Positions 33,001 to 36,000 of a stretch of 64,000 nucleotides of DNA are shown here, piece by piece. Position numbers: made by a program. The DNA is taken from NCBI GenBank assembly GCA_965116925.1, contig OZ220744.1, forward strand, positions 5,984,001 to 6,048,000, read 5' to 3'. Each line of letters opens with the position of its first letter. The stretch's first letter is position 1. The DNA is from Candidatus Poribacteria bacterium. Its GTDB lineage: Bacteria; Poribacteria; WGA-4E; PCPOR2b.

Positions 33001-36000
33001 GGGTGAAAATGTCGCCGGTCTGTATGGGATTGACCTCTCCGCCCATCGCGAGAAACTGAGCCAAGATGAGATTGGCCTCAAACTTGCCGAGGGCGCATAA
33101 AACAACACTGGAACTTGGAACCGTGCTATACCAACCCGATCATTACTGTGAGGGCTGCTCATGATCGCTGCACATACTGATGTCGTTGGCAGCTTGCTCC
33201 GCCCATCTGAACTTCTCAGAGCGAGAAGTGAGGTTGCGACAGGCAAAATGACGCAAGCGGCGTTCAAAGCGATCGAAGATCAAGCGGTTGACGAAGCGGT
33301 TGCACTTCAGGAGGCGGTGGGCTTGGAGGTTGTGACCGATGGCGAGATGCGGCGGTTATCCTTCCAGAGCCAAATGACAGAAGCGGTCAGTGGTTTTGGA
33401 GAATATGATCTCGATGCGTTCCTCTGGGGTGATTGGCATGGTGACGAAGGTACGGGGAGTTTGAGCCTAGAACGCCCCAAAAGCTTGGGCGTTGTCGGCA
33501 AACTCACCCGCAAACGGCACCTCTCAACAGAGGAATTTATCTACCTGCGAGCGCGGACGAATCGTATACCGAAGATCACGTTGCCGAGTCCAAGCCTGTG
33601 GACAAACTTCTGGTCGCCAGAATACTCCACCCCCGCCTATCCCACGCTCGACAGTTTTCTTGCGGAGGTCGTTGACATTATGCGGGACGAGGTCGCTGAG
33701 TTAGTCCGGCTAGGTGCAACCTACATTCAACTTGATGCTCCCCATTATCCGTTGTTGCTCGATCCCAAAACGAGAACCTTCTACGAGGGACAAGGTTGGC
33801 GGCTTGATCAGTGGTTAGACCGGGGTATTGAGATGGATAACGCTGTGATTGGTGATTTTCCGGAGGTGACGTTCGGCTTTCATCTCTGACGCGGCAATCA
33901 GGGCAGCCGGTGGTTGGTCGAAGGGGGATACGATCTGATTGCCAAACCGATTTTTCGTGGCATCCGTGCCCAGCGTCTACTACTCGAGTACGACGATGAA
34001 CGCTCCGGTTCGTTTGAACCGTTGCAGGCGATTCCCGATGACAAGGTCGCTGTTTTAGGGTTGGTCACGACGAAAACGCCGCGCCGAGAAACGCCGGAAG
34101 TACTCACTGCGCGTATCAAGGAAGCCAGCCAATTTGTGCCGCTAGAACGGCTTGCCTTGAGCCCGCAGTGTGGTTTTGCTACTTCGGTCCTTGGCAATCG
34201 CATTACGGCAGAAGATCAGAGACGTAAATTGTCGGTGGTTGTTGAGACTGCTAGAACGGTGTGGGACTAAACTGAAAAATTTTTGAAGGAGGAGCGACAT
34301 GGCACAAACGCCTAAAAACCATCAAACCCGAACCGAATCTATTGGCAAATGGACGGTTCGGATTAGATCTTACCAGCTCGGTGATGCGTATATCTGCACT
34401 GTGGACAATGTAAGCCCCGGTGCTGTCATCGCCCGGTCTACGGCTGCAACCCGTGCTGATGCGGAATCCGAGGCGTTGGAACAGGCGAAAGCCGCGATGG
34501 CATAATTGTGTTATACGAGATTAAAGAAACCGAGTTTTTTCTTGAAAACTCGGTTTCTGATGTATTTGTAGAAGATACGAAAGTTGGGAGCGATAGAATG
34601 AACCTGAATAAATTATCACGAAAACATACCCTCACAAGTCTGGCAAAAACATGTGGGTGAGCGGCGAAAGTCAGTCCAGTTGGACTGGGAGAACTGCTCG
34701 CCAAATTGCCGAAGAAAAACGACCCCAATCTGCTCGTTGGATTTGAAACTAGCGACGACGCGGGCATCTACCGTCTCAACGATGAGATGGCTTTAGTTAC
34801 GACCGCTGATTTCATCACGCCGCCGGTGGATGACCCGTATCTGTTCGGTCAAATTGCTGCCGCCAATTCAATCAGCGATATTTATGCGATGGGCGGAAAA
34901 CCTGTGACCTGTCTGAATTTGGTGGGTTTTCCAGCGGATAAATTGGATCCAGAAATCCTGCACGGAATTGTCGAAGGTGCGCTGAGTAAAATCACTGAAT
35001 CTGGCGCAGTCTTGGCGGGTGGCCATACGACCGATGATGAGGAACCGAAATTTGGGCTGTCGGTCACTGGAATTGTGCATCCGGACAACTATTGGCGGAA
35101 CGTCGGTGCAGAGCCGGGAGATGTCCTGATCTTGACAAAACCGATCGGCAGTGGCGTGATTTTTAACGCCAACCTGAAAAATTGGGTGTCAGACCAAGCG
35201 TTAGACGAATGTATAGGGGCTATCACGACGCTCAATAAGGGGGCGGCGGCGGTTATGGCTGGGTTTGACATCCATGCGGTGACGGACATCACCGGATTCG
35301 GATTGGGAGGTCATGCCTTGGAAATGGCAGAAGGGTCGGACGTGACTTTGGAGATTCGCACCGACGACGTGCCGATTATGCGTGAAGCACTGGAGATGTA
35401 TCAGAAAGGGATGCGGACCGGTGTCAACGCCGCCAATCGAGCGTTGATTGAAGAGTCCACACGTTTTGAAAAATCACTTCCTGCATGGCATGAGGAGATC
35501 TTTGTTGATCCGCAGACCAGCGGTGGACTGTTGATGTCTGTGCCAGCTGCTCAAAGCGAGTCACTGTTGGCGGCTTTACACAATGGTGGTGTGACAGAGG
35601 CACAGATTATCGGAGTTGTGAAGTCTTTTGTCAAACCGAACTATCTTGTTTTTGTATAAACCATGAAAATTTGCTTAATTACCCCTGCCCCAACATACTC
35701 CCGAAAAGGTAATCGTGTGACTGCCCTTCGGTGGGCCCGCATCTTACGAGAACTGGGACACCGTGTCGTTATTGCAGAGGAGTATCAGGGAGAGCGATGC
35801 GACGTGCTGGTCGCACTCCATGCCCGGCGCAGCCACGCCTCCATTGTGCATTTCCGCCATAAACACCCAGAGCTGCCCCTTATTCTTGCCTTGACTGGAA
35901 CAGATCTCTACGGCGATATCCATACGGATGCATCAGCCCAAGAATCTCTGGAGATGGCGGATCGCTTCATTCTATTACAGCCCGCAGGCATCGAAGAACT

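Follow-up and report, generated by a model that had tools for sequence, protein, structure and literature searches.

A widespread MetE-like gene with a probable selenocysteine codon at its predicted zinc site, found in Poribacteria beside selD and senB

The window analysed here is a stretch of 64,000 nucleotides of contig OZ220744.1 (GCA_965116925.1) from a Candidatus Poribacteria bacterium, and all coordinates are positions within it. A single-domain MetE-like gene of the Meth_synt_2, 1ypx-type family is located at 33161..34270 on the + strand and comprises 369 codons followed by TAA. When TGA is translated as U, the frame yields one protein of 369 aa in which U243 is the only recoded codon, whereas translation Table 11 divides the same frame into two ORFs, at 33161-33889 and 33914-34270. 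The in-frame UGA at codon 243 (33887..33889, +), which is very probably read as selenocysteine (Sec), is equivalent to Cys643 of E. coli MetE. It is followed by a SECIS-like mini-hairpin of 17 nt (33902..33918, +) that occupies nucleotides 13-29 after the UGA.

Between the MetE-like gene and selD is a 68-aa ORF (34299..34505, +), which has a strong Shine-Dalgarno sequence (AAGGAGG) upstream and no family match. A tblastn search finds this ORF at 75-99% identity, in some cases partially, in each of the 16 pattern-set loci from Poribacteria, and in none of 58 other TGA loci and none of 80 Cys loci. A perfect palindrome of 32 nt (34526..34557, +) then precedes selD. It is a dispersed repeat with identical copies at 31995, 34526 and 52403, and the region 34524-34560 has a very high summed depth and occurs in many contigs with unrelated flanks. 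The selD gene (34598..35659, +; in-frame ATG at 34598) encodes selenophosphate synthetase (TIGR00476, 375 bits) and itself contains Sec; its UGA is at 34658-34660 and is followed 10 nt later by a 7-bp hairpin, whose first paired base is the 11th nucleotide after the UGA. The senB gene (35663..36613, +) encodes the selenosugar synthase of selenoneine biosynthesis and scores 402.6 bits with TIGR04348 (cut-off 300). The senA-egtD genes of the same genome lie at 0.88 Mb, which is 5.1 Mb from the selD-senB genes of the window. Contigs from four RNA-labelled libraries cover the MetE-like gene, and its TGA is bridged in such libraries by a 3358-nt contig (X5, X6) and a 569-nt contig (X11); contigs of this kind show that the sequence is present, rather than its transcription, strand or level.

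The MetE-like protein matches Pfam Meth_synt_2 (PF01717) over residues 6-343 with 59.1 bits (cut-off 21), and the sequence of PDB 1ypx over residues 5-368 with an E-value of 1.8e-50. In the latter alignment, U243 falls on the Cys of 'mHiCRGN'. The nearest Cys homologues are 72-79% identical over 96-100% of the query (best 120 of 8000 scored), and the U243 column contains Cys in all 120 of these best homologues listed; the same is true of 178 of 178 aligned full-length homologues that have no TGA. Scores are below the curated cut-offs of two NCBIfam models for named short methionine synthases, PRK06520 (237.6 versus 313) and PRK06233 (224.3 versus 576), and the model of canonical two-domain MetE, TIGR01371, is matched only at model positions 428-601 (39.4 bits versus 929.95). 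A first-pass annotation had proposed a single 369-aa gene that is cut by an in-frame TGA on the zinc-ligand Cys of an H-x-C motif, and that has Cys-type relatives at 72-79% identity. These proposals agree with our analysis, in which one frame with a single TGA has a Meth_synt_2 match on both sides of it, the TGA aligns with both the motif Cys of 1ypx and Cys643 of E. coli MetE, and the identities are reproduced. Most likely, the two gene calls in this region are parts of a single gene, which has a Sec UGA at codon 243 and encodes a single-domain MetE-like (beta/alpha)8-barrel enzyme of 369 aa.

In a search of 176 genomes of the phylum Poribacteria, 23 contain a match at 78-100% identity, each with an in-frame TGA. 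These are 20 genomes of genus g1, which includes the genome studied here, and one genome each of genera g2, g4 and g5; the remaining Poribacteria matches are stop-free and at most 36% identical. All 23 orthologues have the TGA at the identical codon (FGFHL*RGNQ), and the additional TGA noted at codon 130 in genome G050 is also present. The family is not restricted to Poribacteria. A TGA occurs at the codon equivalent to 243 in 74 of 80 fetched pattern loci, comprising 16 from Poribacteria and 58 others. The TGA form is thereby found in at least 74 species-level genomes and in about a dozen phylum-level lineages beyond Poribacteria, which by record title include Chloroflexota, Acidobacteriota, Methylomirabilota, Latescibacterota, Gemmatimonadota, Tectomicrobia, Binatia, Nitrospinota, Planctomycetota, Proteobacteria and Bacteroidota. 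Two of the 74 loci have a second in-frame stop, which is a TAG in L082 and the TGA of G050 in L087.

The coding sequence downstream of the TGA is under purifying selection equal to that upstream. Among 21 orthologues (210 pairs), dN/dS is 0.095 for codons 244-369, at a dS of 0.72, and 0.091 for codons 1-242, so chance is excluded as an explanation for the intact frame beyond the TGA. A tree built from 72 Sec and 178 Cys forms places the former in 20 separate pure clades, with at least 15 changes by parsimony. Selenoprotein families usually show such repeated switching between Cys and Sec at a single column.

The hairpin after the TGA consists of an outer pair (G13:U29), a G14/G28 mismatch and a five-pair stem (33904-33908 with 33912-33916) capped by the loop GGU (33909-33911); its core, CAGCC-GGU-GGUUG, spans 33904-33916. 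The five stem pairs are formed in 70, 74, 74, 74 and 73 of the 74 TGA loci, in which the closing pair is broken four times and pair 19:23 once. Compensatory changes convert the closing pair from C-G to G-C (L064, L093) or to A-U (L079). The apical loop is GGU in 55 of the TGA loci and GUU in the other 19. In the Cys genes, by contrast, the loop is GCU in 55 of 78 cases and the closing pair is formed in just 48 of 78. Loop nucleotide 21 is therefore G or U in every one of the 74 TGA genes and C in 55 of the 78 Cys genes. At Arg250, the codon CGC is used by none of 57 unique TGA genes versus 49 of 70 unique Cys genes; at Arg244, CGC is freely used, in 23 of the same 57 TGA genes.

Because the hairpin lies within the conserved peptide G-S-R-W-L, its conservation is partly driven by the protein. 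The synonymous-site signal in Poribacteria alone is modest, the 6-codon window at 244-250 being the eighth lowest, and the comparison of Sec with Cys genes is the more informative test of the hairpin. The structure is small (five base pairs, one outer pair and a 3-nt loop). A longer lower stem of 9 bp (nucleotides 5-13 with 46-54) folds in the window sequence, but it was rejected, as it is missing from the RNAalifold result for 71 unique sequences. An Rfam scan of positions 31000-38000, with E-values up to 10, gave chance matches to miRNAs and snoRNAs and no SECIS family. The SECIS-like hairpin of the first-pass annotation nonetheless finds support in the GGU or GUU loop of 74 of 74 TGA genes and in stem pairs that each form in 70-74 of them. 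It is plausible that the hairpin, which starts 13 nt past the UGA and presents GpU in its three-base loop, recruits SelB with Sec-tRNA(Sec).

The genome encodes tRNA-Sec (76.6 bits), selB (373 bits) and selA (607 bits) in one cluster; ARAGORN detects no tRNA in the window, the tRNA-Sec being elsewhere in the genome. With the Sec-containing selD, all the Sec genes that had been claimed for this genome are thus found. If the TGA were instead a plain stop, the gene would be split or broken, and the cell would make the 242-aa N-terminal part alone or two polypeptides. Table 11 does yield two ORFs, codon 252 is TTG in the window, and the two loci with an extra in-frame stop may be decaying. However, the stop is always TGA and always on the Cys codon (23 of 23 and 74 of 74 homologous loci), the downstream frame is as constrained as the upstream one, and codon 252 is CTG, CTC, CTA or CTT, which are no usual starts, in 49 of 57 unique sequences. 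Moreover, the 242-aa piece has neither the Glu and second Cys ligands nor the last strands of the barrel. A split gene is hence scarcely credible.

A second possibility is that the UGA is decoded as something other than Sec, through near-cognate insertion of Cys or Trp or through lineage-specific recoding, which would give an ordinary Cys-type enzyme. Although the minimal size of the hairpin would accommodate such decoding, TGA terminates 10 of the 42 long ORFs in the window and 20 of the 74 TGA-form genes themselves, so the codon has not been reassigned. The complete Sec machinery of the genome, the repeated Cys/Sec switching that typifies selenoproteins, the GpU retained in the loop of all TGA genes and the closing pair formed in 70 of 74 of them versus 48 of 78 Cys genes likewise argue against it, and we consider this possibility very improbable. 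The conserved TGA, the selection beyond it, the TGA-specific hairpin and the complete Sec machinery together indicate one gene read through a Sec codon, and on this sequence evidence the MetE-like gene is very likely a genuine selenoprotein gene.

Alignment of the family profile with E. coli MetE by using hhalign (probability 97.9%) pairs H241 with H641, U243 with C643 and C337 with C726, and also pairs the substrate residues S11 with S433, E62 with E484 and D192 with D599. The zinc ligands of E. coli MetE are H641, C643, E665 and C726, and its homocysteine-binding residues include Ser433, Glu484 and Asp599 (PMC7857596). The counterparts of these zinc and homocysteine residues are invariant in 21 family members. 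A counterpart of Glu665 is not placed by hhalign; E276 is invariant and occurs at the end of the next barrel strand. In a structure model of the protein (pLDDT 86.9, pTM 0.90), H241/U243, E276 and C337 are at or just past the C-terminal ends of strands 237-242, 272-276 and 331-335, respectively. Foldseek matches the model to 1ypx (E-value 5e-19) and to T. maritima MetE (3e-18), showing a barrel like that of the MetE C-terminal domain, with 1ypx, MetE C-terminal domains and MesD (3rpd) as the best matches by fold.

The zinc-ligand position assigned to Sec by the first-pass annotation is supported by both the MetE profile alignment and the barrel model, with zinc binding itself being predicted. 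Sec is likely a zinc ligand at the position of E. coli Cys643, where it would replace the first Cys of a His-x-Cys...Glu...Cys zinc site. Sec243, His241, Cys337 and probably Glu276 would hold a Zn2+ ion that activates a thiol or selenol for methyl transfer. Because Ser11, Glu62 and Asp192, which correspond to residues that bind amino and carboxyl groups in MetE, are invariant, a homocysteine-like acceptor is slightly favored, and the reaction would most likely be the methylation of homocysteine or of a close analogue such as selenohomocysteine. Because the protein lacks the N-terminal domain with which MetE binds folate, no methyl donor is assigned. Clustering of the genes that neighbor 80 Cys-form metagenome loci revealed no conserved partner family that would name a donor.

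The enzyme was also considered as the sole, housekeeping methionine synthase of its hosts, and this role was rejected. PF02574 is present in 17 of 17 genomes that lack SenA, with MetH-size frames in the small Dehalococcoidia among these, and the genome studied here encodes MetH modules as separate frames along with three other MetE-like paralogues. Given that MetH-type enzymes coexist in the cell, the selenoenzyme would be an accessory one. We assign a probability of roughly 0.7 to this overall explanation, in which one MetE-like gene is read through a Sec codon, Sec is at the zinc site, the acceptor is homocysteine-like and the role is accessory.

Genes for selenoneine or hercynine biosynthesis (senA, senB or egtD) are within 7 kb of 31 of the 74 TGA loci. 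Such neighbors occur in 16/16 loci of Poribacteria, 7/7 of Methylomirabilota, 1/1 of Planctomycetota and 1/1 of Gammaproteobacteria, and in single loci of Latescibacterota, Gemmatimonadota, Tectomicrobia, Nitrospinota and Acidobacteriota. These genes are arranged in at least four different orders, and the identities of the neighbors are confirmed by scores above NCBIfam cut-offs. The remaining 43 loci, including all 21 of Chloroflexota, have no sen or egt neighbor, and SenA scores above its cut-off in 25 of 44 genomes whose TGA locus lacks one; in 17 of 50 genomes searched, SenA has no match. The co-occurrence of Sec use with selenoneine is confounded by selD, on which both depend. The first-pass annotation had suggested a tie of the gene to the selenoneine pathway. 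This part of the claim is supported by the synteny that several phyla, in several gene orders, show with senA, senB and egtD, but the gene is not required by the pathway, because 22 of 45 Poribacteria genomes with a SenB match have no MetE-like orthologue. The odds that the enzyme is functionally tied to selenoneine or hercynine metabolism appear even. In many lineages, the enzyme may be wired into gene sets of egtD, senA, senB and selD, and its plainest role there would be to replenish the methyl groups of methionine and SAM that EgtD spends in its three methylations.

Alternatively, the enzyme might be a selenium-specific accessory of the sen genes and no methionine synthase. Its Sec-zinc site would then bind a selenol, such as selenoneine, the SenB selenosugar or selenohomocysteine, and would methylate or demethylate it or supply a selenium donor to SenA. 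The order egtD-gene-senA, on one strand, in all seven Methylomirabilota loci and in four others (L123, L062, L100, L120) is suggestive of such a function, as are the three further loci in which the gene directly adjoins senA or senB (L071, L090, L099) and the fact that the neighbors are SenA and not EgtB (484-526 bits, cut-off 420). SenB scores at best 82-107 bits (cut-off 300) in the 11 genomes with the egtD-gene-senA order, so their SenA might need another selenium donor, but these are metagenome-assembled genomes and may be incomplete. Similarly, sen or egt neighbors occur at 31 of 74 TGA loci versus 2 of 80 Cys loci, but the Cys control was drawn from soil-type metagenome contigs with short flanks and so differs from the TGA set in habitat and length. 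Related zinc methyltransferases of the UroD/MetE superfamily are reported to have been proposed to act on methyl-selenium compounds and to have been assayed with them (PMC10418091). Against a selenium-specific function, the three invariant residues, whose MetE counterparts bind homocysteine by its amino and carboxyl groups, fit an amino-acid thiol better than a betaine or sugar, and the genomes without SenA, the loci without sen neighbors and the SenB-bearing Poribacteria without the gene also disfavor it. We consider this function unlikely.

The same low likelihood applies to a dedicated fourth selenoneine component that handles a selenol, which conceivably makes Se-methylselenoneine, interconverts selenomethionine and selenohomocysteine, or provides the selenium donor of SenA in clusters without SenB. 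In such a component, it is doubtful but imaginable that the Sec ligand tunes or joins methyl transfer at zinc, a chemistry that to our knowledge is not known for any natural enzyme.

Under the favored explanation of a Sec-reading, accessory MetE-like enzyme, the gene most likely represents a widespread selenoprotein family that is absent from published lists as far as checked. No MetE-like selenoprotein family was found listed in the published selenoproteome surveys, to the extent that these were checked. Likewise, literature searches yielded nothing relevant that connects Sec or selenoneine to cobalamin-independent methionine synthase, or Sec to a zinc ligand. To that extent, the novelty asserted in the first-pass annotation stands for the MetE-like selenoprotein; other bacterial selenoproteins have already been predicted to use Sec as a metal ligand (review PMC13188914). 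Uncultured marine and soil bacteria commonly carry the family, and its genes are systematically mis-annotated there, either as pseudogenes or as two fragments; because the family is also missing from the lists checked, the selenoproteomes of these phyla are under-counted. That the gene recurs between egtD and senA, or next to senB and selD, suggests an unrecognized accessory step in selenoneine biosynthesis. If the proposed chemistry is true, selenium would be put to a different use here, with a conserved Sec as ligand of a Lewis-acid zinc that activates thiols for alkyl transfer, and this would offer a natural test of ligand softness against zinc-thiolate reactivity and oxidation resistance.

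Several known systems resemble the MetE-like gene. In the window, it adjoins selD, which has the role of senC, and senB, and elsewhere it adjoins senA and egtD, which recalls the senABC cluster of Kayrouz et al. The gene is not a constant part of that pathway, being absent from 22 of 45 SenB-bearing Poribacteria genomes, and the main text of the preprint (10.1101/2022.04.13.486033) mentions no MetE-like gene.

The closest relatives are in the 1ypx-type 'cobalamin-independent methionine synthase II family', whose name is borne by the Cys-form relatives at 72-79% identity in NCBI records. By name, its members include the Listeria protein of PDB 1ypx and YxjG and YxjH of B. subtilis. These proteins provide the best fold match (TM-score 0.82 on the target) and a full-length sequence match, and are of equal length with the same H-x-C-R-G-N motif, except that the MetE-like protein has Sec for the motif Cys. 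Among the papers listed in a literature search, no established biochemical function for this family was found.

The C-terminal domains of E. coli and T. maritima MetE share the barrel fold (TM-score 0.71-0.73 on the query). His641, Cys643, Cys726, Ser433, Glu484 and Asp599 all have aligned counterparts, and that of Glu665 is ambiguous. Unlike MetE, the protein has only 369 aa, no N-terminal folate-binding domain, and Sec in place of Cys643. The core folate-independent methionine synthases MesA-MesD also consist of a single MetE catalytic domain, and they use a methyl donor other than methyl-folate (Price et al. 2021, PMC7857596); the text of that paper does not mention 1ypx or YxjG/YxjH. The MetE-like protein is similar to MesA-MesD in its single catalytic domain and its conserved zinc and homocysteine residues, and MesD (3rpd) is close in fold. 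However, its sequence match to 3rpd is weak (E-value 2.7e-6), and no MesX or corrinoid-protein partner was seen adjoining the gene.

The prototype of bacterial selenoprotein genes with a SECIS element inside the ORF is E. coli fdhF. As in such genes, a short hairpin whose apical loop contains G and U begins approximately 11-13 nt after the UGA, Cys homologues are abundant and switching between Cys and Sec is patchy, although the hairpin, with its 5 bp and 3-nt loop, is at the small end of the range. In nearly all known cases, Sec belongs to a redox motif or coordinates Mo, W or Ni. In the MetE-like protein, by contrast, Sec would occupy the predicted Lewis-acid zinc site of a non-redox enzyme that transfers alkyl groups.

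The selenocysteine (Sec) form of the MetE-like family is a genuine selenoprotein family, widespread and probably unpublished, and the gene in the window is one ordinary member, adjoining selD and senB. This gene (33161-34270, forward strand) is a single frame of 369 codons once its lone in-frame TGA (33887-33889, codon 243) is translated; gene calling with table 11 yields two ORFs, 33161-33889 and 33914-34270, the latter starting at TTG. The product scores 59.1 bits against Pfam Meth_synt_2 (cut-off 21) and matches PDB entry 1ypx over its full length (E 1.8e-50), with U243 aligned to the Cys of the H-x-C-R-G-N motif. 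Two short methionine-synthase models of NCBIfam match below their cut-offs, and none of the selenoprotein-specific NCBIfam models matches. The first-pass annotation had described a Sec codon at a zinc-ligand position, and its observation was reproduced in every element, among them the values given for the 120 best homologs and the extra TGA of one Poribacteria genome (G050).

Contigs from one genome per species were scanned with the degenerate DNA pattern F-[GA]-F-H-L-TGA-R-G-N, which matched 107 stretches. Among the 80 loci fetched (L numbers), 74 are true homologs, in which an open frame of 126-139 codons follows the TGA and ends at the C-terminus of the family; the other six (L068, L072, L097, L112, L114 and L133) are chance matches. 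The 74 TGA loci belong to Chloroflexota (21), Poribacteria (16), Acidobacteriota (13) and Methylomirabilota (7), and also to Latescibacterota, Gemmatimonadota, Tectomicrobia, Binatia, Nitrospinota, Planctomycetota, Proteobacteria and Bacteroidota, so the Sec form is not a Poribacteria feature. In a midpoint-rooted FastTree phylogeny of 72 Sec and 178 Cys forms, the Sec forms are divided among 20 separate pure clades, and parsimony requires at least 15 changes. The two forms are clearly interleaved, despite a biased Cys sample made up of the 120 nearest database matches and metagenome loci.

Several observations indicate that the TGA is a sense codon. It occurs at the identical codon in all 23 orthologs that a search of 176 Poribacteria genomes yielded (four genera, identity 78-100%), and Poribacteria paralogs (at most 36% identity) have no stop. 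In 210 pairwise comparisons of the 21 Poribacteria orthologs free of indels, codons 1-242 have a dN/dS of 0.091 (dS 0.83) and codons 244-369 one of 0.095 (dS 0.72), so translation continues in frame past the TGA. Codon 252, at which the gene caller places its TTG start, is CTG, CTC, CTA or CTT in 49 of 57 unique TGA sequences, and a C-terminal fragment started on its own from this codon seems unlikely. Reassignment of TGA is ruled out by its use as an ordinary stop, since, of 42 long ORFs in the window, 10 end in TGA, as do 20 of the 74 TGA genes themselves. Genes for tRNA-Sec, selB and selA are clustered at 2.37 Mb of the window's own genome, a single 6.47-Mb contig. Upstream of codon 243, two TGA loci contain a further in-frame stop: L082 has a TAG where the codon equivalent to Trp218 lies, and L087 (the G050 locus, also L028) has a TGA as codon 130. 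These could be decaying copies or assembly errors or, for the TGA of L087, a second recoding site.

The SECIS-like hairpin is a 17-nucleotide element (33902-33918, forward strand) that begins after a 12-nucleotide spacer 3' of the UGA. It comprises a G13:Y29 pair, a mismatch, five pairs (15-19 with 23-27) and a three-nucleotide loop, and no Rfam family matches it. Because the peptide G-S-R-W-L is itself conserved, the decisive control is provided by Cys genes, obtained with the same DNA pattern carrying TGY in place of TGA. Pair 15:27 is formed in 70 of 74 TGA loci versus 48 of 78 Cys loci; the corresponding counts are 74 and 72 for 16:26, 74 and 73 for both 17:25 and 18:24, and 73 and 75 for 19:23. 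Changes on both sides turn the closing C-G pair into G-C in L064 and L093 and into A-U in L079; in four TGA loci this pair is mismatched. Nucleotides 20-22 of the loop are GGU (55) or GUU (19) in TGA loci, and GCU (55), GGU (11), GAU (6), GUU (5) or UGU (1) in Cys loci. Nucleotide 21 is the third base of the Arg250 codon, which in the 57 unique TGA sequences is CGG (43), CGT (13) or AGG (1) and never CGC, and which is CGC in 49 of 70 unique Cys sequences; Arg244 is CGC in 23 of the same 57. In SECIS elements of the E. coli fdhF type, the features recognized by SelB include an apical-loop GpU and a spacing of about 11 nucleotides.

An hhalign alignment (probability 97.9%) of E. coli MetE with a profile built from 21 family members equates H241, U243 and C337 with His641, Cys643 and Cys726, and S11, E62 and D192 with Ser433, Glu484 and Asp599. 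According to section 11 of PMC7857596, the former three MetE residues are zinc ligands and the latter three bind homocysteine. All six positions are invariant in the family alignment. The region of the MetE zinc ligand Glu665 is poorly aligned; the invariant E276 is a candidate for its counterpart. In an AlphaFold2 model (pLDDT 86.9, pTM 0.90), H241/U243, E276 and C337 lie at or just past the C-terminal ends of strands 237-242, 272-276 and 331-335, and the closest folds are 1ypx, MetE C-terminal domains and MesD (3rpd). Because the folate-binding N-terminal domain is absent, the protein is a putative "core" MetE-type zinc enzyme, and the retained residues suggest that its acceptor is an amino-acid thiol or selenol.

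The next gene downstream is an ORF of 68 amino acids (34299-34505, forward strand), which has AAGGAGG as a strong ribosome-binding site and matches no family. In the pattern set, tblastn matches to it (75-99% identity, some partial) are found in 16 of 16 Poribacteria loci and in no locus of other phyla; each time the ORF lies between selD and the MetE-like gene (or senA). It is followed by a Sec-containing selD (34598-35659, forward strand; UGA at 34658; TIGR00476, 375 bits), whose hairpin, a 7-bp stem from the 11th nucleotide after the UGA with loop AGUU, is comparable to that of the MetE-like gene. A longer selD ORF, from a GTG at 34508, crosses a palindromic repeat and probably begins too early; the ATG at 34598 is more likely to be the true start. 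This perfect 32-nucleotide palindrome (GAAACCGAGTTTTTTCTTGAAAACTCGGTTTC) has three identical intergenic copies (31995-32026, 34526-34557 and 52403-52434), and the copy at 34526-34557 separates the 68-residue ORF from selD. Its summed depth is near 950 in RNA-labelled library contigs, many of which have unrelated flanks on both sides, so it appears to be a dispersed, REP-like element in these symbionts. Downstream of selD is senB (TIGR04348, 402.6 bits; cut-off 300), which has no TGA in the window. Full-length senB matches with one in-frame TGA occur in 10 of 45 Poribacteria genomes (G029, G032, G034-G037, G052 and G061-G063) and in Latescibacterota genome G231 (L071), and SenB itself may be a selenoprotein in some lineages.

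Unbiased clustering of all ORFs of at least 90 amino acids within 7 kb of the 74 TGA loci revealed as recurrent neighbors SenB, SelD, an EgtB-like protein, EgtD, a fused betaine-type binding protein/permease and a ProV-like ATPase. The EgtB-like proteins are SenA by NCBIfam (484-526 bits, cut-off 420; the EgtB model is below its cut-off), and EgtD and SenB were likewise confirmed. By tblastn, senA, senB or egtD lies within 7 kb of 31 of the 74 loci. The window's Poribacteria genus has the order MetE-like gene, 68-residue ORF, selD, senB, and Poribacteria locus L099 has egtD, ATPase, binding protein/permease, MetE-like gene, senA, selD, senB. All seven Methylomirabilota loci, L123 and L062 share egtD, MetE-like gene, senA, ATPase, binding protein/permease; L091 and L103 end at senA with the contig, L093 begins at the MetE-like gene, and short contigs L100 and L120 hold egtD, MetE-like gene, senA. 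The order is senA, senB, MetE-like gene, egtD in Planctomycetota and MetE-like gene, senA, senB in Latescibacterota.

The association is not universal. No such neighbor is found within 7 kb of 43 of the 74 loci, including all Chloroflexota (0 of 21), and the MetE-like gene is absent from 22 of 45 Poribacteria genomes with a SenB match. In seven Chloroflexota/Dehalococcoidia loci (L069, L074, L083, L101, L105, L110 and L128), a SulP-family (BicA or sulfate-permease-like) transporter on the opposite strand adjoins the Sec-form gene; a preprint (10.1101/2022.04.13.486033) notes a putative selenate transporter close to some of the sen clusters. Among 50 further genomes, SenA is above cut-off in 30, including 25 of 44 without a sen or egt neighbor at the TGA locus, and 17 have no SenA match; the window's own genome carries senA-egtD at 0.88 Mb. 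Cys-form loci, whose contigs are short and from other habitats than the TGA set, have a sen-type cluster in 2 of 80 cases, these two near-identical to each other.

A role as sole methionine synthase is ruled out, as PF02574 domains are present in all 17 SenA-lacking genomes, in MetH-size frames in the small Dehalococcoidia among them. The window's own genome has three other MetE-like paralogs and four MetH modules (homocysteine-binding, pterin-binding, B12-binding and activation) in separate frames (G000:C1, 4018247-4019071, 4268978-4269868, 4271586-4272293 and 4280729-4281439), three of them within 12 kb, which constitute a split MetH-type methionine synthase. The MetE-like enzyme would be an accessory homocysteine-type methyltransferase that, in many lineages, would serve the methyl-hungry hercynine/selenoneine pathway; this service is proposed because EgtD consumes three SAM per hercynine, as stated in the same preprint. 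A bolder alternative is that the enzyme acts directly on a selenium metabolite. One as yet unexplained result speaks for it: no SenB above cut-off was detected in the 11 genomes with the order egtD, Sec-form MetE-like gene, senA (L061, L065, L067, L091, L093, L103, L107, L123, L100, L120 and L062), in which the best scores are 82-107 bits against 300 and the completeness of the metagenome-assembled genomes is uncertain. SenA is above cut-off in these genomes wherever scored, except in that of L100, where it is below. Either a divergent glycosyltransferase replaces SenB there, or SenA uses another selenium or sulfur donor.

As to why Sec might occupy a zinc-ligand position, PMC4360819 describes S-bacillithiolation of B. 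subtilis MetE at its active-site Cys under hypochlorite stress, and methionine auxotrophy from modification of MetE, YxjG and additional Cys/Met-pathway enzymes. A selenolate ligand could keep the zinc site reducible or could increase the nucleophilicity of the bound substrate.

No MetE-like or methionine-synthase family is listed in the passages considered of a 2026 prokaryotic selenoproteome review (PMC13188914), which tabulates families by Pfam or NCBIfam accession, or in those of the main text of BSepDB (PMC13326102), of deep-Sep (PMC12013277), of the GOS selenoproteome (PMC2398784) and of a 2022 review (PMC9312934). To call this the first Sec metal ligand would be too wide, because PMC13188914 lists predicted Sec metal ligands in other selenoprotein families. 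The apparently new points are a Sec at the catalytic zinc site of an alkyl-transfer enzyme and its occurrence within the MetE superfamily. The family offers a testable link to selenoneine metabolism. Its nearest functional precedent is the MtaA-like methyltransferases of the same UroD/MetE superfamily, proposed in PMC10418091 to act on methyl-selenium compounds (one was assayed), in which that account reports no Sec. With its Cys homologs and a SECIS element within the ORF, the MetE-like gene follows the known selenoprotein pattern; the position of its Sec is what is unusual.
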